Below are positions 1 to 8,388 of a DNA stretch of 8,388 nt, piece by piece. The stretch is from IMG/VR virus record IMGVR_UViG_2690315922_000011; one strand, 5' to 3'. The translations under genes were made by a program, and so were the position numbers. Numbering within the stretch: position 1 is the stretch's first letter; every line of letters starts with the position of its first letter. The DNA is from a virus. Taxonomy: Duplodnaviria; Heunggongvirae; Uroviricota; Caudoviricetes. The notes under the pieces are model-generated. The model had not been told where the DNA came from, ran no database searches, and saw nothing but the letters and a program-made list of their open reading frames with translations.

Positions 1-290
<290 letters not shown>

Positions 291-300
291 TCAAACATTA

Positions 301-2364
301 TTATTCCTCTGGGTAAGCTGAGCTAATCAGAGTGTCTTCTTGCATTCGATTAATGTGAGATGTAGTCCTTTCATCAATAATCTTTCCATCAAGAATTGTC
401 TGGGTAGTGACATTAATTGTCTGAGGCTTAATACTTACTGATGGTTTAATAACCTTTAAATCTTGAGTAAATGTTTCCACTCGACCTTTCAGATTATTTA
501 ATGACTCAGGTGAAAGCTGTGGAACATCTTTTGATTTACCCTGAACCATAGCCCATAAAACAGCGGCTAAAGAGTTCATGTCACCAGTTAATGCCTGGTC
601 TGTGGGTTCCACCTTTGCCCGTACAATTTTATCCATTGGATTATCGGACTTACTCATCTGACGTTCATAGAACGGTTTGACAATGGCATTAATCACATCA
701 GTTGCCATACCGACAATCATTACTTTGGTAATTGCATCAGCTACAGATAATTTCCCTTTACCACCTTCAACACTACCAGAGCGTGAATTAATTCTCCCTG
801 CTGCTGTATTCGCTACATTTCCAAGCGTGGAAATAGCCCTGATTAAGTTCCAGATACCACCTACAGCACCAATACCAGACCTCACAGCAACAATTCCAGC
901 AAGTCCCTTTAATGCACTTAACAGGCCATTTGCAATACCATCAGCCACAGTTTTTTGAGTGTCATTTAATTCTCTGTAAGCAAGGGTCACTCTGTCAAAG
1001 AATCCCTGCACTCGGTAGCTAATCGTGGTTAAATCATCAATACCGTTTGACATGCTTTTCATCAAGTCGCCAAAATGTTCACCAAGATTTTTAGATTGAC
1101 CACCCAGTGAATTAAGTAAATTAGTCAGTGACCTTGTAAAGTCTGTTAATCCTTCCTGTGAACCATCGAACATTAAGGCCAGATTATTATTCCATTCATT
1201 AGAAAGGCGACCTAACTGTGTCTGAGTAGAGTTAATAATCTTTTCCCATCCTCCCGCTTTATCAATCATCTTTCCCATTTCAGCGGATACTTTAGGGAGA
1301 ACATCTTTAGAAAGAACCTTACCGTCTTTCATAGCCTTGTCTAATTCTTCCGTAGTCATCCCAAGACTTCTGGCAAATAACTGAAAAGCACCTGCCATTC
1401 TGTCACCTAACTGACCGCGTAATTCTTCAGCCTGAATCTTTCCTTTAGATGCCATCTGCTCGAAAGCTTTTAAAATCCCGTTAATTTCATCGGTGCTTAG
1501 CCCCATTAATCTGGATGTGCCAATCACGTTGGAAAATAAGGATTCTTTCTGGCTTGTATCCATGTTACCAGCGCCAGCGGAAAACTTAGCGTAGCTTGAT
1601 AATGTTTCAATCTGGTCTACACCTGTTTTGCCAGCAAGACTCTTAACGAATTCTGTAGCTCGTTTAGCACCTTCATCACCTAAAACAAATTGTGCCGCTC
1701 GTTGTGATGCTTCTTTTTTCAAACCAATCTCCATCACCTTTCTGTAGGCTTCAAGGGCTGTTTGAAAACTATAAATGGCTGTACCTGCTTTAATTGCACT
1801 CGTGGCTAATACATCCAGACTATTTGAAGCATTTTCACTGTGATTACTTTTGCTGGTGGATGTGTGACCTCTGGACTTAATAAGAGCTTCACGTAGATTT
1901 TGATTTAACTTTGCCAGTTCACGATTAAAAGCTTCGTTTCCAAGTGTCTTAGCTTTGGAGCTCAGATTGTAATACTGCGCCTTGAACATTTTGGCTAACA
2001 GAGGGTCAATGCTATTTAGCTTGCTCATGTTCGAGCTATGCGCGGCTGTGATAGCTCTGTTGCCGCTAATTCGTGGTTGTCTAAGTGGCTTTAAAGTATC
2101 CTCAATTTCCGTTTTAATCTTAAACGCTTTAGTATTTTTAAGACGCTGCTCAATCTTGGAAATGGTTTTATCGACATTCTTTTCCATTACCTTGAGAGAG
2201 TCATTTAAAGGCGCAGGATTAACTTTAAAAGCTTTATTCAGTCGTTTCTCAATTCTTGATGCGATTTGCATCGTTTGTTTCTCGACTTTTTCCAGACCTT
2301 TTAAAACCTTCTGAGAGTTAAAACTTAACTCAATCAGAAAATCATCGACTTTAAATTGTGCCAT
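301..2364 (-). CDS. Phage tail tape-measure protein (tail length determinant)
   Basis: 687-aa ORF. K/E-rich coiled-coil-like N-terminus; segment LSTDEINGILKAFEQMASKGKIQAEELRGQLGDRMAGAFQLFARSLGMTTEEL resembles the conserved tape-measure core as I recall it; Gly/Ala-rich hydrophobic segment GLLSALKGLAGIVAVRSGIGAVGGIWNLIRAISTLG typical of these proteins. SD AGAGGTGA about 11 nt upstream of ATG 2364-2362. A downstream tail gene follows. Confidence 0.8.
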   Translation of the reverse strand: MAQFKVDDFLIELSFNSQKVLKGLEKVEKQTMQIASRIEKRLNKAFKVNPAPLNDSLKVMEKNVDKTISKIEQRLKNTKAFKIKTEIEDTLKPLRQPRISGNRAITAAHSSNMSKLNSIDPLLAKMFKAQYYNLSSKAKTLGNEAFNRELAKLNQNLREALIKSRGHTSTSKSNHSENASNSLDVLATSAIKAGTAIYSFQTALEAYRKVMEIGLKKEASQRAAQFVLGDEGAKRATEFVKSLAGKTGVDQIETLSSYAKFSAGAGNMDTSQKESLFSNVIGTSRLMGLSTDEINGILKAFEQMASKGKIQAEELRGQLGDRMAGAFQLFARSLGMTTEELDKAMKDGKVLSKDVLPKVSAEMGKMIDKAGGWEKIINSTQTQLGRLSNEWNNNLALMFDGSQEGLTDFTRSLTNLLNSLGGQSKNLGEHFGDLMKSMSNGIDDLTTISYRVQGFFDRVTLAYRELNDTQKTVADGIANGLLSALKGLAGIVAVRSGIGAVGGIWNLIRAISTLGNVANTAAGRINSRSGSVEGGKGKLSVADAITKVMIVGMATDVINAIVKPFYERQMSKSDNPMDKIVRAKVEPTDQALTGDMNSLAAVLWAMVQGKSKDVPQLSPESLNNLKGRVETFTQDLKVIKPSVSIKPQTINVTTQTILDGKIIDERTTSHINRMQEDTLISSAYPEE

Positions 2365-2430
2365 TCATAATTTTTCACCTCTTTAAGCGTGTTGTACGTG
2401 AATTCTATTTTTCAGTGTGGGTATTAACGT

Positions 2431-2479
2431 AGAAATAAAAAAGGGAGGACCAGCCAATAAATCAAGGCTAATCTCTCCC
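2431..2479 (-). terminator. Putative rho-independent terminator after the 72-aa gene
   Basis: On the minus strand: GGGAG..AGCC / GGCT..CTCCC interrupted stem (plus-strand 2443-2479, loop 2456-2465) followed by UUUUUUAUUUCU (complement of 2431-2442). Begins 7 nt after the stop codon at 2486-2488. Confidence 0.5.
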
Positions 2480-2485
2480 TGTGTA

Positions 2486-2704
2486 TCAATGTCTGACAAG
2501 ATAATGTAATTTCGTTTCACCTATGATTTGAGCATCAGAAGGAACACGGTCAATACACCACTTTGGAATCTTGCGTGTTTTTGATTTGCGTGAGGTGATA
2601 ATTTTATGATTACGCTCAACCCTCAATCTTGATTTATTGGGTTGTAGCTGGAGTCGTTCACAAACAGACCGAATAGTCTCTAAGCGTTCGTTCAAATCAA
2701 GCAT
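2486..2704 (-). CDS. Hypothetical small basic protein (72 aa), co-transcribed with the upstream 240-aa gene
   Basis: ORF MLDLNERLETIRSVCERLQLQPNKSRLRVERNHKIITSRKSKTRKIPKWCIDRVPSDAQIIGETKLHYLVRH, very R/K-rich. SD AAAGAGGTGA 4 nt before the ATG; the start lies 23 nt after the stop of the 240-aa gene; own terminator downstream. No family recognised. Confidence 0.6.
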   Translation of the reverse strand: MLDLNERLETIRSVCERLQLQPNKSRLRVERNHKIITSRKSKTRKIPKWCIDRVPSDAQIIGETKLHYLVRH

Positions 2705-2727
2705 TAATCACCTCTTTTAATTCATAA

Positions 2728-3447
2728 TTAAATAGCCTTTGCGTACTTGCTAGAAATCTTAATAAGCTGCTCAATGTCACCTTGCAAGGCAACCTTTTTC
2801 TGTGCCTCGTATTCGACTATCAAAGATTTCATTACATTAAATTCGTTTTTCAAATCCTGTTTTAACCTGTCCAACTTGTCAGCGTGACGCTTAAGCAAAT
2901 TATTTTCAGCCAGTTTAAAAATCTCTTCGTCGCTTTTGTCGCTTGTCAAAATGAATTGCCCTGAGCCTAATGTTGCAGGCTTCACATCAATTAAACGATG
3001 CCCCTCGGGAATATTTCGAATAACCTCCGAAACAAGTTCTCGTGGAGTACCATAACCACCGTTGTGATTTCCCTCGTAATAGACAAATGGGTTTGCTGCA
3101 ATTTCGTAAGCAACAACATGCTCGGATAGTTCCCCTGCATCTTTCATCTGAACTAATTTGTCGTAAGCGCTATCTAATCTAATTCGCTGCTCTTTAAGGA
3201 CTGGATAAAATCGTTTTTCAAGCTCAAGCAGCGCTTCACTTTTGCACAAATCCGGCATTTCCTGAGGAGCTTCAGGAGTCACATAGATAGTCATTTTCGG
3301 CAAAGATTTGAATTCCTTTTCGCGCTCAATTAATTTATCAAAAAATCTGCGTTGCTCTGACACTCCCGGATGCTGTGTGATAATTCCTGTGTCCCAATCA
3401 CCAAAACTATCAATTTTGCGACCATTCACAAAAATAGGATTTTCCAT
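2728..3447 (-). CDS. Hypothetical protein (240 aa) with C-terminal coiled-coil-like region; function unknown
   Basis: The ORF track extends this frame to 3564, but the ATG at 3447-3445 (MENPIFVNGRK...) has a strong SD (GAGGTG, 6-nt spacer), whereas the upstream ATG has none and its extension overlaps a terminator-like hairpin. C-terminal ~60 residues are heptad-like and K/E/L-rich (KLDRLKQDLKNEFNVMKSLIVEYEAQKKVALQGDIEQLIK). No known family recognised by eye. Confidence 0.6.
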   Translation of the reverse strand: MENPIFVNGRKIDSFGDWDTGIITQHPGVSEQRRFFDKLIEREKEFKSLPKMTIYVTPEAPQEMPDLCKSEALLELEKRFYPVLKEQRIRLDSAYDKLVQMKDAGELSEHVVAYEIAANPFVYYEGNHNGGYGTPRELVSEVIRNIPEGHRLIDVKPATLGSGQFILTSDKSDEEIFKLAENNLLKRHADKLDRLKQDLKNEFNVMKSLIVEYEAQKKVALQGDIEQLIKISSKYAKAI

Positions 3448-3548
3448 TATTTTCACCTCACATTTGTTCTGAATAAGTTTTTTTAAAGCACCCTCAGCAT
3501 GGCACGAGGTGAATTTTATTTGGGGCAGGTTTTTTGCCAAAGGTGCTT

Positions 3549-3574
3549 TAAAAAATGCCCTCATTCAAGAGGGC
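3549..3574 (-). terminator. Intrinsic-terminator-like hairpin inside the 5' leader of the 240-aa gene (possible attenuator)
   Basis: Minus strand reads GCCCUC-uugaau-GAGGGC (plus-strand 3557-3574) followed by AUUUUUUA (complement of 3549-3556). About 100 nt upstream of the start codon and downstream of the candidate promoter at 3740-3767. Confidence 0.4.
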
Positions 3575-3624
3575 GAAGTGAAGGAAAAGAAAGAATTATG
3601 AACTACTGAACAAATACTTTTGAA

Positions 3625-3652
3625 AAGGTCTTTCCGATTTAAAAAAGACCTT
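3625..3652 (-). other. Perfect 9-bp-stem hairpin in the same leader (RNA structure or weak terminator)
   Basis: AAGGTCTTT (3625-3633) and AAAGACCTT (3644-3652) are exact reverse complements around a 10-nt loop. On the minus strand it is followed by UUCAAAAGUAUUUGUU, only moderately U-rich. Confidence 0.4.
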
Positions 3653-3739
3653 GGCGAAAGCATTGCACTTCCATCTAGAATGTAGGAAATTAAGACAATT
3701 AAGTTAATTTAATTTAGGGAAATTACTCCCCATATAAAA

Positions 3740-3767
3740 ATGCTACCATAGAATTACCACCTGTCAA
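3740..3767 (-). promoter_or_regulatory. Candidate sigma70 promoter for the 240-aa/72-aa cassette
   Basis: Minus strand reads TTGACA (complement of 3762-3767), 16-bp spacer, then TGgTAGCAT (complement of 3740-3748), an extended -10-like element. This places the transcription start about 285 nt upstream of the ATG at 3447. Promoter calls by eye are tentative. Confidence 0.4.
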
Positions 3768-3852
3768 CAAAAATATAACAACCCGTGTTATTTTTCCATT
3801 GAAATTGCAAAGGAAAGTACTATTCCAAGCAACACCCACAAGATAATTAGCG

Positions 3853-4146
3853 TCATTCGTTTACTCCCAGAAATTGCAATGTAACAGCAGTCTTAATCAG
3901 CCTCTCCGGGCTAACGCTGAACTTGTTGGTTTCCGTGGTAATAAATCGCTTTAGGTTCACATCATCAACATTTAAAATCAATCGTGACTCATCAATTTCA
4001 ATGGTTTGAATAAAATCTTTAAAATTCTTGTTATCCATAACGTCACGCATCCTATCAAGATTAATTGCACTTGCAGCACCGTCCAGAGATTGCATCATTG
4101 CAGCGGTCATCTCATCAATCATAATTTGCATTGGGGAAGTGTTCAT
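3853..4146 (-). CDS. Hypothetical protein (97 aa)
   Basis: ORF MNTSPMQIMIDEMTAAMMQSLDGAASAINLDRMRDVMDNKNFKDFIQTIEIDESRLILNVDDVNLKRFITTETNKFSVSPERLIKTAVTLQFLGVNE with SD AGAGGA 8 nt before the ATG. No motif recognised. Confidence 0.55.
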   Translation of the reverse strand: MNTSPMQIMIDEMTAAMMQSLDGAASAINLDRMRDVMDNKNFKDFIQTIEIDESRLILNVDDVNLKRFITTETNKFSVSPERLIKTAVTLQFLGVNE

Positions 4147-4214
4147 TTTAAAAATCCTCTATGAAATAGTTTCTATCGAATAAAACACATCTTAAATCTG
4201 CCAAAATAGCCATT

Positions 4215-4283
4215 CTGAGGCCAGTAACCATGCGGGTTACAGAGGGAGTGAGACACCTTAGCAATAGGGTGGCTTACCTTTGA
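4215..4283. other. Two adjacent inverted repeats in the 158-bp intergenic region (candidate RNA structure or protein-binding site)
   Basis: GTAACC-atgcg-GGTTAC (4215-4231), then GAGTGAGAC (4237-4245) and GTCTCACTC (4275-4283), exact reverse complements around a 29-nt loop. The GTCTCA/TGAGAC core recurs in the repeats upstream of the recombinase. Confidence 0.4.
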
Positions 4284-4304
4284 GTCTCACTCGTTATCAC
4301 AGAC

Positions 4305-4691
4305 TTAAATAGATGCTCTAAGCTTGTAGTATTGACTACGTGATAAACCGTATTTTGCAGAAACATAACTTTGTGATTGACCTCTGGAAATGGCATCAAG
4401 AATTAACTCCCTGTCATACCGATTACCATTGGCTTTGTGTTTGTCACCAGAATTATTTCCATTAAAATTTTCAATTAATTTAACGGCGTCTTTAAGGTCA
4501 TCTTCGTAAGCATAATCAAAACCCCTGATAAACTCGAAGTCACCATTATCTTTTTGTGCTTCAATCCAGATGTCGAATCTTGAGGCTAATTGCTGGTGAG
4601 TGAACTTGGGTTTATTGGTTTGTGTTATGTCTTTCCAGGCCTGACCGTCAAATCTCACCAGATGGTCACGATGTTTATAAAAATCATACAT
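4305..4691 (-). CDS. HTH-domain protein (128 aa), putative transcriptional regulator
   Basis: C-terminal segment RELILDAISRGQSQSYVSAKYGLSRSQYYKL has a helix-turn-helix pattern like sigma-70 region 4 or resolvase-type HTH. Its ATG overlaps the stop of the upstream gene (TAATG at 4689-4693), indicating translational coupling. Confidence 0.6.
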   Translation of the reverse strand: MYDFYKHRDHLVRFDGQAWKDITQTNKPKFTHQQLASRFDIWIEAQKDNGDFEFIRGFDYAYEDDLKDAVKLIENFNGNNSGDKHKANGNRYDRELILDAISRGQSQSYVSAKYGLSRSQYYKLRASI

Positions 4692-4984
4692 TAAACCCCC
4701 AGCTTATCCGCCAGTTGATGAATCTTAATGCTCAACACCTGAATCATTGAGCAACCTGTTACCGCAGACTGTGCTTTGAGTAGTTCCAGTTGGTCTGACG
4801 TGATTCGAACGGCTTTAGAACCCTCTACAACGCCCTTGATATTATCGAAAGGGGTGAGGTCTGTTGACTCTTTTAAAACCTCTCCAATAAGCGCTGAATG
4901 CTTCACGTTTGGGTATTTGTGCTTGATGGATGCCAGTCTTTTAAACGCCTCTGGCAAAATGCGTGTAACTGTGTGTTTAGACAT
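4691..4984 (-). CDS. Putative tandem ribbon-helix-helix DNA-binding protein (97 aa), likely repressor-type regulator
   Basis: Two consecutive beta-strand/helix/turn/helix patterns: TVTRILPEAFKRLASIKHKYPNVKHSALIGEVLKE and KAVRITSDQLELLKAQSAVTGCSMIQVLSIKIHQLADKL, each resembling an Arc/CopG-type fold. SD GGAG 10 nt before the ATG. Fold assignment is by pattern only. Confidence 0.55.
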   Translation of the reverse strand: MSKHTVTRILPEAFKRLASIKHKYPNVKHSALIGEVLKESTDLTPFDNIKGVVEGSKAVRITSDQLELLKAQSAVTGCSMIQVLSIKIHQLADKLGV

Positions 4985-5246
4985 TATTTAAAGTCTCCTA
5001 AATTACTTGTGTGTTAAAATAAATTATGGGCTGATACAAACCGTTCCTTTTTTATTAATGGAATGGAATTAATGCATGATTTTTTCACAGCGATTATTGA
5101 ATCCCATCGCTTTAGCTCGTTGGGCTTTGCGGTATTTGTTCTCCTGTTATTGTTTACCCTGATTAATCGGGTTATTTCAAAGGAAACAAAGTTAATGATT
5201 CGTATTAAGTTTCTTCGCGTTGAAATAGAGATTTCAATCAATCGCT

Positions 5247-5284
5247 AATAAATCAATTAAAGCTGGTGGAGTTTATTCACCAGC
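5247..5284 (-). terminator. Putative intrinsic terminator overlapping the 3' end of the replication gene
   Basis: GCTGGTG (5262-5268) and CACCAGC (5278-5284) are exact reverse complements around a 9-nt loop that contains the stop codon. On the minus strand the stem is followed by UUUAAUUGAUUUAUU. Confidence 0.4.
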
Positions 5285-6059
5285 CGTAATCATCTTCGAA
5301 ATCCGGTAACTCATCATCGTCACCATCACATAAATCATCATCTTCATCCGGGTCCGGTAATGGTTCATCATCGTCATCGATGGTGGGGCACGGTGTATTT
5401 TTCTGGTCACTAATAACAATCACATCAGAGTTTTTATTTCTTTGTTTATTAGCCTCTTCAGAGCTTGCTTCAAGGTCATCTAAAACAGTTTGTTTAATAG
5501 TCTCTTTAATTCCAAGAGAATCACATTCATGTGAATCACAGAGCGAAGCTCCATTCTTAACAGTCCCTTCTTCAAAGTCATCTTTCCTATTGTTATTAAT
5601 AAGTTCTTTTTGTTCTTTCTTGTTATTATACGTGTCAAGAATTTTGACTGACTGAGTAAAGAATTTTGACTCAGTGGGTAAAGAATTTTGACTCAGTGGG
5701 TCATCTTTTTTGACTGCTTTAGATTCCAGCTTTGCTTTTCGTGCTTCTTTGGCTGTAGGTTCAGTTAAAACCTCAGGAACTTCATCAAGCGAAAAGACTT
5801 CAATAATACACTGGTTGCTCGCAACGTTAGTTTTCCTAATTAAACCATACGCCTCAAGTCTTTTCATACATGCAATAACTGATGTTCTTGTGATTCCTGC
5901 ATACTGACCAAGATGAGCATAAGACGGTGTATAGTATTGACCTTTATCGTGATAGTATTTTTGCTCATTCAGCATGACGGTGTAGATAATACGGTCAGCC
6001 GCTTTAATTTTATTACTCATCTGATAAATACGGTCATCAAACATGTGAAACTTTTCCAT
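5277..6059 (-). CDS. Replication initiator, lambda O-like N-terminal winged-helix domain, with poly-acidic C-terminal tail
   Basis: 260-aa ORF with SD GAGGT 9 nt before the ATG. N-terminal region DRIIYTVMLNEQKYYHDKGQYYTPSYAHLGQYAGITRTSVIACMKRLEAYGLIRK matches the phage O N-terminal pattern (..LaelTGlsrrtv..al..Le..GlI) as I recall it. Tandem iteron-like repeats and an AT-rich tract lie inside the gene, as the lambda origin does within O. C-terminus DDDDEPLPDPDEDDDLCDGDDDELPDFEDDYGW. Confidence 0.65.
   Translation of the reverse strand: MEKFHMFDDRIYQMSNKIKAADRIIYTVMLNEQKYYHDKGQYYTPSYAHLGQYAGITRTSVIACMKRLEAYGLIRKTNVASNQCIIEVFSLDEVPEVLTEPTAKEARKAKLESKAVKKDDPLSQNSLPTESKFFTQSVKILDTYNNKKEQKELINNNRKDDFEEGTVKNGASLCDSHECDSLGIKETIKQTVLDDLEASSEEANKQRNKNSDVIVISDQKNTPCPTIDDDDEPLPDPDEDDDLCDGDDDELPDFEDDYGW
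5581..5721. repeat. Putative origin of replication: four tandem 22-bp iteron-like repeats plus adjacent AT-rich tract, inside the O-like gene
   Basis: Units at 5634-5655, 5656-5677, 5678-5699 and 5700-5721; the central two are identical (GTAAAGAATTTTGACTCAGTGG), the outer two diverged, all sharing TTTTGACT. Flanked at 5581-5633 by a roughly 75% A+T tract. Confidence 0.6.
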
Positions 6060-6291
6060 TCATAAATTACCTCATACGTGAAAAGGCCAACCGGATAAAA
6101 CCGATTAGCCTGATGTGATTTAAATATCTGGGGGATTGATGGACTGATAAAGAAGCCCATGCCTGAAACAGTACGATGATTAAAACGCTGAGGTATACCC
6201 TGAATGAGAGGTTTTATATACGTCAATCATCTGACACCTCCCCAAGTGTTACCACTCCAAGACATGAACTTTTTTATCAGCCCATATAAAA

Positions 6292-6320
6292 ACTATACCA
6301 CACGTGATTATTAGTTGCAA
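6292..6320 (-). promoter_or_regulatory. Candidate sigma70 promoter directed toward the replication gene
   Basis: Minus strand reads TTGCAA (6315-6320), 17-bp spacer, then TGgTATAGT (complement of 6292-6300), an extended -10-like element. A strong SD-like GGGGAGGTG follows about 50 nt downstream (complement of about 6232-6241). Confidence 0.4.
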
Positions 6321-6393
6321 CAACTATTTCACTAAATTATTACCGTTTGATTACTTATTGTTCACCTCATAAATACCGGGATTTATTGGAAAA

Positions 6394-6540
6394 TCAGCCT
6401 AATCTTTCAGCAATTCTGTACGAGGTACTCAGGGGCATTCTGAGAGCCTCCGCAATGTACTTGATGGTTTTGCCCTCTGTTTCTGTTATCATCGGGCTTG
6501 CCTTATCAGGGCTTTGAAATGCCTCTGTAACTCCCCCCTC
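6394..6540 (-). pseudogene. Remnant of a serine-recombinase C-terminal HTH domain (truncated; N-terminal catalytic domain absent)
   Basis: Minus-strand frame reads ...FQSPDKASPMITETEGKTIKYIAEALRMPLSTSYRIAERLG-stop, with an in-frame stop upstream at 6541-6543. Compare the intact recombinase C-terminus GRPSKASPEAVQTLISQGKTRLQIQEELGISRATFYRLAK: shared KASP linker and STxYR-type HTH. Only 32 codons from the first ATG and no upstream start; it abuts hairpin repeat copy 1. Confidence 0.35.
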
Positions 6541-6541
6541 T

Positions 6542-6600
6542 TAACAGGAGAGAGGGTGATACATGAGACAAGAACCCTCCCTTCTTAAAAACCTTCTTGA
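6542..6600. repeat. Hairpin-containing direct repeat, copy 1 (~60 bp)
   Basis: Core GGAGAGAGGGTGATACATGAGACAAGAACCCTCC (6547-6580) matches copy 2 at 33 of 34 positions. Internal inverted repeat GAGGGT/ACCCTC (longer with mismatches) around a 16-nt loop that contains ATGAGAC. Flank similarity (ACC..CTTG..TCT) continues to about 6600. Confidence 0.6.
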
Positions 6601-6937
6601 CAATCTTTACAGACCTTGTTCAAGGTAATCACAATAGTTTTTCTTCCCTCGGCTTCCCGTGTTCCTCGGTTCGTTTATTGAGACCCTGAAAGACCCTGTA
6701 ACTCCTTCTTAACGGGAGAGAAAGAACATAGTGACCCCCAAGCGAAGCGCCCCTTTTAGTATGCTTTTTAATCACCATTTTAGCATTTAGTGCTTTTTAT
6801 TAAATTTAGCACTTTTTGCTAAAGACAAAACACTTGACAAATTGCTAAGATTGGACACATACCCCATCTTAACAGACTTTTAAGAGACTTTTAAACGGCC
6901 TGTTTAACCGGGTCACTATCCGGTTCTTCGTTCCCCC

Positions 6938-6951
6938 TCTATCTAGATAGA
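6938..6951. promoter_or_regulatory. 14-bp perfect palindrome TCTATCTAGATAGA (candidate operator or protein-binding site)
   Basis: The sequence equals its own reverse complement. Flanked by repeated CTGTTAAGA motifs (6953-6961, 6988-6996) and an AACCGG-n8-CCGGTT inverted repeat (6906-6925). Confidence 0.4.
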
Positions 6952-7081
6952 TACTGTTAAGATTTTTTAAGAAATCTCTTACGTCAACTGTTAAGATAAA
7001 CTTACCTTCCGTTAAAACAGTTCTGTCTAGCAATTTCATAATTGTCTGTCAAGTATCTTTGAAGGTACTATCAAGGGTCAC

Positions 7082-7145
7082 TAAGCGGGAGAGAGGGTGA
7101 TACATGAGATAAGAACCCTCCTGTTAAAAGACCACTTGGAAAGTC
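7082..7145. repeat. Hairpin-containing direct repeat, copy 2 (~60 bp)
   Basis: Core GGAGAGAGGGTGATACATGAGATAAGAACCCTCC (7088-7121); same orientation as copy 1, 541 bp downstream. Followed by the 13-bp palindrome AAGTCTGAGACTT (7140-7152). Confidence 0.6.
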
Positions 7146-7534
7146 TGAGACTTTAGTAAAATCTGTGAATACGGCTTCTCAGACGCTCTGTAACGCATTC
7201 TAGGCGATTTTACCCCCTTATTTTAAGGTGGGTGGTACATCCCTATAGACTACCCCTAAAAATGGGGTTAAAACTCGCTACAGAGCTTTCTATGAGATTA
7301 GCTTCTAATCGAATCAACTATGAGGCTTGGCAGAGTTGCATAAATTTTATACAGCACTTATTCAGCTTCTAAATTTTTTATAAAAATGACTAGCCCTTCT
7401 TCAGGTTCTCTTCCTCATTAACTCCCAAAAATATCTGTGAGTGTCTATACCCGTTTGGTAGCCCAGATTCACGATATAGCCCCTCCCTTGCAAAATCTGG
7501 AAATATCTGTCATATCCTTATGACTGTAGAATAA

Positions 7535-8083
7535 TCACTTCGCCAATCGGTAAAAGGTCGCTCTAGAGATGCCTAGCTCTTCCTGAATCTGCAACCTCGT
7601 CTTACCTTGTGAAATGAGCGTCTGAACAGCCTCTGGAGAAGCTTTTGAAGGTCGTCCCATGTGAACCCCTTCAGCTTTAGCACGCTCAATGCCAGCCTTT
7701 CTACGCTCACTGATAAGGTCTTTTTCAAGGTCAGCTAAGCCAGCCATCATAGTAAGCATTGCTTTACCGATTGCCGTAGACAAGTCGAACCCTTCACGCA
7801 ACGAAACAACCCTCACACCTTTAGCCTGTAGTGTCTCCACGTTAGAGAGTACATCAACAGTATTACGCCCTAAACGGTCAATCGCTGCCACAGCTAACGT
7901 ATCGTCACACCTTACATAGTTCATCATGTCTATAAAGCCATCTCTGTTGGTAGCCTTTGTAGTTCCTGAGACAGCTTCATCAATAAACCATTTATCGACC
8001 TTGTGAACCTTCTCTATCTGTAATTTCTGGTTGTCTATAGACTGCTCTCGTGTTGATACCCTGCAATAACCAATCACCGCCAT
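7535..8083 (-). CDS. Site-specific serine recombinase (small resolvase/DNA-invertase family)
   Basis: 182-aa ORF. N-terminal IGYCRVSTREQ with the catalytic-serine context; DRLGRN motif; C-terminal HTH GKTRLQIQEELGISRATFYRLAK. Size and layout match resolvase/Hin-Gin-type recombinases. SD-like GGGGGG 4 nt before the ATG. Confidence 0.9.
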   Translation of the reverse strand: MAVIGYCRVSTREQSIDNQKLQIEKVHKVDKWFIDEAVSGTTKATNRDGFIDMMNYVRCDDTLAVAAIDRLGRNTVDVLSNVETLQAKGVRVVSLREGFDLSTAIGKAMLTMMAGLADLEKDLISERRKAGIERAKAEGVHMGRPSKASPEAVQTLISQGKTRLQIQEELGISRATFYRLAK

Positions 8084-8097
8084 ACATCCCCCCTAAG

Positions 8098-8237
8098 TAG
8101 TCTCAAAAGTAAGTCTCATAAGTTTAGCTGTCTCATAATTCAAAAACAAGCTTATGAGACACTTAGAAGATGCATTCTACCGTTGCGTTGAAGGCGTCTC
8201 ATAAGGACTTCCTTTTGAGACTAACTTAGAAGGTGCA
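8098..8237. promoter_or_regulatory. Repeat array upstream of the recombinase gene: putative res-like recombination/operator site with three sub-sites
   Basis: GTCTCA(A/T)AAG motifs at 8100-8109, 8113-8122, 8130-8139, 8196-8205 and, inverted, at 8151-8160 and 8214-8222. Sub-site B is TGTCTCATAA-n13-TTATGAGACA (8129-8161); sub-site C is GTCTCATAAG-n8-TTTTGAGAC (8196-8222). An additional direct repeat ACTTAGAAGRTGCA lies at 8161-8174 and 8223-8236. Layout resembles Tn3-family res sites, which sit immediately upstream of the resolvase gene. Confidence 0.45.
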
Positions 8238-8388
8238 ATGTGCAAAACAGTTATGTTGCTTATTATTACCTCTTGCAACTGAAAAACCATGTGACCAGAT
8301 AACTGCATAGCGTTATATAGTCCTGTAAATAGCGGTTTATAAGAGTCGAGAGAGAGATGACTAACAACTGCATAGTTTTACTGATAAG

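Follow-up and report, generated by a model that had tools for sequence, protein, structure and literature searches.

The 8,388-nucleotide stretch of DNA analysed here (IMG/VR virus record IMGVR_UViG_2690315922_000011; hereafter the window) holds about three quarters of an ~11.5-kb element found in the chromosomes of Escherichia. Our analysis indicates that this element is probably a satellite of virulent Felix O1-type (Ounavirinae) myoviruses that would work much like the PLEs of Vibrio cholerae. We favour a satellite of a virulent phage over a broken prophage because the element combines replication and recombination genes of its own with tail-core genes of the Felix O1 type and with DNA that resembles the ends of Felix O1-type genomes. 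A fuller proposal, which falls a little short of being probable, is that the element represents a previously undescribed, common family of satellites of Felix O1-type phages whose own tape-measure protein (TMP) and tail-tube initiator (TI) would be swapped into the tail of the helper, and whose DNA would be packaged via copied terminal-repeat signals. The only three links to any phage (the TMP, the TI, and a non-coding module) all point to this one phage group. A literature search found no description of the family, although an unindexed report is possible.

All of the called genes of the window lie on the minus strand, in the order small serine recombinase (7535–8083), 1.5 kb of non-coding DNA, a replication initiator gene (rep, 5277–6059) with internal iterons, several small genes, the TMP gene (301–2364), and the start of the TI gene (1–224; the first 74 codons, the remainder lying beyond the window). 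An earlier description of this DNA made without database searches (the sequence-only reading) had reported this order, together with a distance of ~2.9 kb between rep and the TMP gene and a lack of packaging, capsid, and lysis genes. We find the same: 2.9 kb separate the end of rep (5277) from the start of the TMP gene (2364), and scans with Pfam and PHROG models detected no terminase, portal, capsid, sheath, tube, or lysis gene in the window, nor were such genes found in complete copies that have host genes at either end. The sequence-only reading had also measured this gene order against that of temperate siphoviruses, a yardstick that is inapplicable because the TMP belongs to the type found in Felix O1, an Ounavirinae myovirus, and it had taken the recombinase for a fragment, whereas the gene encodes a full-length enzyme of 182 amino acids (aa) with its catalytic serine. 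Indeed, every reading frame in the window is intact. Exact counterparts of the TMP, Rep, 239-aa, and Dit-like proteins are found in Escherichia albertii (e.g. WP_059279605.1). The window corresponds, in reverse complement, to positions 145–8532 of its source contig (a Logan contig of 9,079 bp, assembled from the short reads of run DRR017162), which stops exactly at the TI stop codon, before the integrase gene that is present in relatives.

The TMP of the window (687 aa) is a divergent allele of the Felix O1 type (PHROG 4036, E = 1e-94; Pfam TMP_3, E = 3.5e-20; TIGR02675). It aligns end to end with the 742-aa Felixounavirus TMP at 30% identity and is 55 aa shorter, with conservation above 70% confined to the first 40 aa and to aa 302–341. 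Among 50,697 phage records the closest full-length TMP is ~30% identical and partial matches reach at most 38%. Across elements the length of the TMP varies from 682 to 726 aa. Window positions 1–209, within the TI gene, are 87% identical at the nucleotide level to 182 phage records, nearly all of them named as Felix O1-type (Felixounavirus), and the phage gene that is matched sits directly after the TMP gene in Felixounavirus genomes. The complete TI protein, 256 aa long in contig L002, shares 75% identity with EcoM2_00134 and matches Pfam Dit_like. By its gene position after the TMP gene, rather than by direct comparison, TI corresponds to gp18 of Bas63, a tail-tube initiator seated on the baseplate hub (PMC12609058). 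Genes for the sheath, the tube, and two chaperones come before the TMP gene in Felix O1-type genomes. The element has none of them: within the ~11.5 kb between host genes, its structural genes are limited to TMP and TI. Felix O1-type phages are virulent, and EcoM2, the one whole Felix O1-type genome inspected, has no annotated integrase. The comparison with related phages that the sequence-only reading had proposed succeeds for the TMP and TI, which are homologous to those of Felix O1-type phages, and comes up empty for the element-specific genes, which have no homologue in EcoM2.

Identity between TI and phage DNA ranges from 70 to 92% across elements, with a maximum of 91.5% over 544 nt (locus L011), a pattern that, at the level of sequence comparison, shows repeated and recent exchange of TI between elements and phages. 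In the four elements compared, the TI protein is 67–82% identical to its EcoM2 counterpart. The TMP occurs as at least three alleles that are 46–52% identical to one another and each ~30% identical to the phage TMP, and these two neighbouring genes have had very unlike histories of exchange with phages (loci L003, L005, L007, and L010–L012).

The third link to Felix O1-type phages lies between the recombinase and rep (6060–7534; 1,475 bp). The sequence-only reading had cited this repeat-rich region as a sign of decay; it is instead a conserved non-coding module, with no credible gene, that is present in about 30 loci. Positions 6201–7507 are 94% identical to an E. albertii locus (L010), as compared with ~83% for the adjacent genes. 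When an nhmmer profile built from five element copies of the module was searched against the whole 88-kb EcoM2 genome, it matched positions 42464–42643 (E = 1.9e-12), and all weaker hits fell within the same gene-free stretch. By its flanking genes, this region of EcoM2 aligns with the direct terminal repeats (DTR) of phage Pr103Blw, which are 581 bp long and have been mapped with PhageTerm and annotated (PMC8303462). At the concatemer junction of Pr103Blw the profile hits a segment across the right DTR end (E = 2.3e-9) and a block inside the DTR (E = 1e-7). In the window, the counterpart of the right DTR boundary is at 7358–7464 (minus strand), where 80 of 102 aligned positions are identical to junction positions 3015–3123; the alignment, read from 7464 to 7358, begins 8 nt before the end of the repeat (the DTR ends at 3022) and scores 49, against 22 ± 2.6 for shuffled sequences. 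The counterpart of the internal block is at 6904–6935 (minus strand; 28 of 32 positions identical to junction positions 2710–2744). In BLASTN searches the two phage segments gave hits in 20 element loci, always in the non-coding module; the phage block matched by window 6904–6935 gave hits in 13 other element loci, and one element's copy of the module matches 173 Felix O1-type phage records.

The module and the phage region also share a motif. CTTAACAG occurs six times in the module, in both orientations, against 0.3 expected, and 19 times in EcoM2, against 3.4 expected, with five of the latter clustered in 41467–43129, the sole long gene-free stretch of that genome. CTTAACA arrays are found at both edges of the Pr103Blw repeat, and the phage terminal-repeat region lies between convergent gene blocks and is not an obvious promoter region. 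These findings suggest that the module is a packaging signal copied from the helper, and the homology may point to the location of the still undefined packaging signals of Felix O1-type phages. We also considered whether the module encodes a structured RNA. For 16 homologues, RNAalifold returned −16.6 kcal/mol across 806 columns and covariation was nearly absent, and for this reason we dropped the RNA explanation in favour of a module that would act through DNA-level sites. No Rfam family was hit in the module (two sub-threshold chance hits fell elsewhere in the window), no tRNA was found in the non-coding region, and a scan for promoters and terminators returned counts no higher than chance. 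The module contains, in addition, a 41-nt unit with an internal GAGGGT/ACCCTC hairpin at 6540–6580 and again, 541 bp away, at 7081–7121 (90% identical), with a partial third copy near 6689–6721; the unit is conserved in relatives.

Among 5,426 complete E. coli genomes, up to 545 (about 10%) have chromosomal matches to the window. All 763 places in E. coli are chromosomal, and a plasmid origin was rejected on the grounds that PLSDB (72,556 plasmids) gave no megablast hit. The element occurs in E. coli, E. albertii, and Escherichia marmotae and, as judged by its 72-aa protein, in Citrobacter. We located marker proteins in 81 loci, which were drawn from genomes, IMG/VR, and metagenomes, counting downstream genes only where the contig reaches them. 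The gene for the 239-aa protein is followed by that for the 72-aa protein in 79 of the 81 loci, and the genes that come next are TMP (67 of 68), TI (49 of 50), and a large serine recombinase (28 of 29), the sole exception to the marker order being an isolated gene fragment. The layout rep, small genes, 239-aa gene, 72-aa gene, TMP, TI, large serine recombinase is fixed in the 81 loci, with TMP and TI in every locus that reaches that far. Variation is seen in cassettes, i.e. in the rep allele (at least four), the small recombinase (three alleles), a Dam methylase gene, an HNH endonuclease gene, and the 128-aa gene. Comparison of the window with the closest E. coli copies, all of which are full length, gave dN/dS ratios of 0.12 for TMP, 0.08–0.12 for TI, and 0.14 for the 239-aa gene, values which indicate that these three genes are under purifying selection.

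Complete copies show where the element begins and ends. In E. coli Tig207 the whole element (~11.4 kb) sits in yecE, between yecD and yecN, and consists of a large serine recombinase gene (507 aa), TI, TMP, genes for 69-aa and 236-aa proteins, four small genes, rep, a Dam methylase gene, and a small serine recombinase gene. Other copies, in E. albertii and E. coli, adjoin yciI or sit between yciI and tonB, and a third type of integrase marks a third site. The integrases of relatives, which lie outside the window, are 506–507 aa long and have Resolvase, Recombinase, and Zn_ribbon_recom domains. The examination of flanking DNA for att sites and host genes that had been proposed on the basis of the sequence-only reading is thus informative in relatives, which split yecE or adjoin yciI/tonB and end in a large serine recombinase. 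The window itself ends in non-coding DNA distal to the small recombinase, towards the element end (8084–8388), and does not reach the att site; positions 1–251 of L002 are 94% identical to L010 5004–5254, ~270 bp inside the yciI-side boundary of L010. The yecE gene is a shared hotspot that is used by Stx phages as well (PMC8112680). In locus L005 (9967–13056) a copy with a shorter, 431-aa serine recombinase adjoins a tyrosine-integrase prophage that also uses yecE.

Two contigs carry the ends of the element joined to one another. Metagenome contig L030 (11,473 bp) is circularly permuted, with the integrase end joined straight to the small-recombinase end. Its junction consists of both ends of an integrated copy (L019 15714 and 4092) with the overlap AAAATCA, which gives an attP of TAGTGTATTTAAACGTGTCTAATAAAAATCATCAAGGTCTAAATACACTA with perfect 11-bp inverted arms; the attB deduced by joining the host flanks gives back an open yecE frame. 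L030 is broken inside the rep iterons, ending in a three-fold AGTGACAAAATGTCA repeat, as expected of a repeat. In contig OOBX01000469.1 (23,009 bp), which is devoid of host DNA, an 11,477-bp unit is perfectly repeated 2.005 times. Read as sequence, these contigs show that site-specific head-to-tail junctions exist; they do not by themselves prove free circles. OOBX01000469.1 departs from its repeat unit over the first 30 nt, and positions 1–45 of L030 begin with an Illumina Nextera adapter (TCGTCGGCAGCGTCAGATGTGTATAAGAGACAG), a contamination in the public metagenome assembly. In L063 (SKEF01003551.1, 7278–8800) a truncated integrase gene is joined to an L007-like boundary with a yecE 3′ fragment and, beyond that, to the recombinase end, a structure that reflects rearrangement or chimerism rather than a clean attP.

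The element appears to carry a replicon of its own. The rep product (260 aa, with an acidic C-terminus) is a winged-helix protein resembling replication initiators, with matches to PHROG families of replication initiation and lambda O-like proteins (E = 4e-9 to 5e-5) and no match to RepA_N. Within rep, 3.5 tandem copies of a 22-bp iteron followed by an A+T-rich repeat stretch (5637–5715; TRF score 109) form a putative origin. The gene is one of at least four alleles found at this position, and the allele of L007 has in-gene iterons of its own (23 bp × 2.9). Locus L011 carries a short rep allele (185 aa) that has no in-gene iterons; a 95-bp unit repeated 1.8 times is found upstream (8716–8887), in the non-coding module, a placement which suggests that the layout of the origin differs by rep allele. 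We also looked for an arms race of the Odn type, in which phage nucleases mimic the initiator; for the three rep alleles tried, tblastn found no hit in 50,697 phage records.

The small serine recombinase, of the resolvase/invertase type (Pfam Resolvase, E = 5.7e-40; HTH_7, E = 7.7e-9; PHROG 125 'DNA invertase', E = 7e-59), is a swappable cassette with three alleles that are ~35% identical and can lie in either orientation. We rejected the notion that it operates an invertible switch, as its opposite orientation in relatives reflects replacement of the cassette by such an allele rather than inversion. It lies far from the integrase end (e.g. L010 5352–5894, L011 10185–10754, and L012 10089–10637) and is missing from some copies, such as the unit of OOBX01000469.1. 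It may act in multimer resolution or as a directionality factor, among other possible roles.

Taken together, these findings suggest the following life cycle. The element would reside in the chromosome at yecE, at yciI|tonB, or at the third site through the action of its large serine recombinase, would excise as a circle, and would replicate from its own initiator and iterons. On infection by a helper, its TMP and TI would replace the phage versions in the inner core of tails that are otherwise built by the phage, and the helper's terminase would recognise the element DNA through the terminal-repeat-like non-coding module. With a TMP that is 55 aa shorter than that of the phage, the chimeric tails are predicted to be ~5–8 nm shorter. 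What we infer from these comparisons is that a helper would induce the element, that chimeric tails would be assembled, that element DNA would be packaged and transferred, and that the helper may suffer interference.

A number of observations weigh against this proposal, and they leave the satellite life cycle a candidate drawn from comparative sequence. In the element we recognised neither a tail-assembly chaperone nor a small terminase, a capsid-size factor, or any known interference gene; the 72-aa and 239-aa core proteins match no family or fold; and no Odn-like phage nuclease has a domain that matches the three rep alleles tested. The head of an 86-kb phage would take ~7.5 copies of an 11.5-kb genome, and no capsid-remodelling gene is evident. 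The terminal overlap that is typical of circular assemblies was seen in none of 70 metagenome loci, and the head-to-tail contigs could have come from tandem arrays in the chromosome or from the behaviour of the assembler. Plain BLASTN reveals homology to the DTR in just 20 of the 59 loci that reach the region; in the window this homology is short (~100 nt at 78% identity and ~32 nt), its two blocks are in the reverse order relative to the phage, and the phage region is taken to be a packaging signal because of where it lies.

Other explanations have to be set beside the satellite proposal. We consider it unlikely that the element is a defence island whose divergent TMP and TI are dominant-negative decoys that poison the assembly of Felix O1-type tails, such that the population is protected and the element is not packaged. 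Interference with tail assembly by mobile elements is established for the Tai systems (PMC11364771) and for Rta of PLE11 (PMC12987554), no packaging or capsid genes were recognised with Pfam or PHROG, and the TMP resembles the phage TMP just at its N-terminus, centre, and C-terminus, which would permit docking without function. A decoy role, however, leaves unexplained both the homology of the module to the phage terminal-repeat region and a replicon with allele-specific iterons; moreover, TMP length is held within narrow bounds, purifying selection acts over the whole protein, and no PADLOC model was matched. By analogy with PLE, which has both, the decoy and satellite roles would be compatible and need not be mutually exclusive. 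We find it quite improbable that the element is mobilised in some other manner or is immobile, with TMP, TI, and the phage-like non-coding DNA being recombination cargo that is kept for, e.g., superinfection exclusion or the sensing of infection. Such an origin would suit a core in which most genes are without known function and a set of highly modular cassettes (rep, small recombinase, Dam methyltransferase, and HNH endonuclease), yet no conjugation or mobilisation genes were found in the window or in a complete copy, TMP and TI are never missing from loci that extend far enough, TI has been exchanged with phages repeatedly and recently, and the three phage links do not scatter over different phage groups.

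The sequence-only reading had left a choice between a heavily deleted prophage remnant and a compact, satellite-like element. We regard decay of a prophage as very unlikely. Most phage genes are missing, as they would be in a remnant, and damaged copies do exist (a truncated integrase gene and an IS21 insertion in L012, a lone gene fragment in L006, and insertion sequences in some of the E. coli hits). Against this, the architecture is invariant in 81 loci, dN/dS is ~0.1 (0.08–0.14) and the frames of the window are open throughout, whole copies of ~11.5 kb exist, the integrases are intact and the attP junction is precise, the donors of the tail genes are virulent, with no integrase annotated in EcoM2, and the element-specific genes are without any phage homologue. 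Neither the pseudogenes, relaxed selection, and variable deletions of a cryptic prophage nor the extrachromosomal replicon of a plasmid or phage-plasmid were found, whereas features general to satellites were: att sites and an integrase in relatives, an incomplete set of virion genes, and a replication module of its own. The satellite-like alternative thus gains support from the comparative evidence and from the non-coding homology to a helper-type terminal-repeat region, and the element would depend on a helper. It is scarcely credible that the gene order is an assembly artefact, or that the window is a piece of a complete phage with its structural genes elsewhere in the element, a concern raised at the outset. 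Although the short-read source contig ends precisely where the TI gene does, the same junctions recur in finished E. coli chromosomes, where host genes flank the element on either side, and in long E. albertii and metagenome contigs.

The satellite proposal is best judged against what is known of PLEs. PLE11 of V. cholerae is a serine-integrase island that encodes its own TMP, tail chaperone, and baseplate hub, and that, on the virulent myovirus ICP1, builds chimeric tails shortened by 10 nm, thereby escaping its own anti-TMP protein Rta (PMC12987554). Like PLE, our element is a small chromosomal island with a large serine recombinase as integrase (here in relatives and not in the window) and with its own initiator and origin. 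Its tail genes code for a TMP, shorter than that of the helper, and for a baseplate-core protein, both with homologues in a virulent myovirus, and capsid and terminase genes are absent. The contrast between the two tail proteins is also alike, the TMP and the hub or initiator being 20% and 41% identical to the phage proteins in PLE11 and 30% and 75% identical in this element. The two differ in host (here Escherichia/Citrobacter), in helper group (here Felix O1-type), and in size (~11.5 kb versus ~18 kb). In addition, our element has an initiator with no RepA_N match and only weak winged-helix and lambda O-like matches, no recognised tail chaperone by its TMP gene, and an extra small serine recombinase cassette. 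The likeness is known here from the genes alone, with PLE taken by description rather than by sequence, and the element is not a PLE in the strict sense.

Nearer at hand are the putative E. coli satellites of Barth et al. (2023), which have major capsid and decoration proteins, RepA_N initiators, and mostly tyrosine integrases by tRNAs, with a subset at lysR, and which are tied to ~146-kb myoviruses (Inny, Muut, and Mt1B1_P17) via phage nucleases, including a T5orf172 nuclease, with matching RepA_N domains (PMC10055350). They too are islands of E. coli that carry genes for a TMP and a baseplate component but lack most of the other tail genes, and they have modular initiators and, in some cases, serine recombinases; our element, in contrast, has no capsid genes, occupies yecE and yciI|tonB, and has three tested rep alleles without a phage match. 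It is set apart from their 224 elements by the published description, and some overlap is possible. P4-type satellites and PICIs share with it a cis packaging signal copied from the helper, which here would follow from the terminal-repeat homology. Pfam, PHROGs, and NCBIfam searches of the element found neither sid, psu, delta, or a primase gene, as in P4-type satellites, nor a tyrosine integrase, alpA, pri-rep, or terS, as in PICIs. Whereas the helpers of P4-type satellites and PICIs are temperate cos or pac phages, Felix O1-type phages are virulent and package from direct terminal repeats. cfPICIs and PICMIs are likewise compact satellites that take part of the virion from a helper, and PICMIs exploit virulent phages too. 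However, cfPICIs make their own capsids and steal tails, whereas our element has no capsid genes and would supply parts of the tail core, and PICMIs, unlike our element, encode no structural genes.

What is new is thus a candidate satellite family of Felix O1-type virulent phages; the PLE-type strategy itself is known. If the satellite proposal is correct, a coliphage that uses direct terminal repeats for packaging would for the first time have a known satellite family, which would be an independently arisen enterobacterial counterpart of the PLE–ICP1 system, and the PLE-type strategy would have arisen more than once. That strategy, in which a satellite of a virulent myovirus makes chimeric tails, would become testable with E. 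coli genetics. Felix O1-type phages are widely used in Salmonella typing, in food biocontrol, and in therapy cocktails. If bacteria commonly carry in their chromosomes an element that hijacks or blocks these phages, there would be consequences for host range, efficacy, and gene transfer. More generally, a gene order that looks like that of a broken prophage can belong to a complete, selected element.

The remaining genes of the window are small. From the TMP gene towards rep they encode (all on the minus strand) a basic 72-aa protein (2486–2704) whose gene lies directly upstream of TMP and is kept in related loci; the element-specific 239-aa protein (2728–3447), with long helices and a small alpha/beta domain; a 97-aa protein (3853–4146) that is present in most loci but has diverged (33–46% identity); an accessory 128-aa protein (4305–4691) with a weak C-terminal helix-turn-helix (Pfam HTH_28, 0.0037, below the cut-off), found in about half of the loci; and a second 97-aa protein (4691–4984), conserved in position, with a weak ribbon-helix-helix resembling the Omega repressor (Pfam Omega_Repress, 0.0055, below the cut-off), which is a probable regulator. 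In locus L007, 58 nt upstream of the Dam methylase cassette (15589–15646) are 88% identical to an EcoM2 intergenic sequence (50912–50967); these nucleotides, which the window lacks, may be a promoter taken from the phage.

The 72-aa protein has no Pfam, PHROG, NCBIfam, PADLOC, or PDB match, and its AF2 model (pLDDT 78) matches no fold, that of tail chaperones included. A role as a tail chaperone was rejected both for this protein, which has no similarity to the Felix O1 chaperones and no fold match, and for the 239-aa family, for which hhalign against a Felix O1 chaperone was negative. The 239-aa protein, for its part, has no Pfam, PHROG, NCBIfam, or PDB sequence match and no tblastn hit in the 50,697 phage records; PADLOC returned one chance-level hit (Cas6, E = 0.0047), and Foldseek searches of BFVD and PDB yielded nothing beyond coiled-coil noise. 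The two proteins may be chaperones or inhibitors of the phage TMP, roles for which we found nothing in support. Both families are almost confined to Escherichia, with some members in Citrobacter, Kluyvera, and Shigella; that of the 239-aa protein comprises 2,322 clusters, nearly all from Escherichia, and has only 15 representatives among 1.84 billion proteins. Its mechanically called open reading frame reaches 3564, upstream of the conserved start at 3447. RefSeq/PGAP names members of this family (P0001–P0120) 'transposase'; Pfam, NCBIfam, and PHROGs give no transposase match, and the name looks like an annotation error that has spread.

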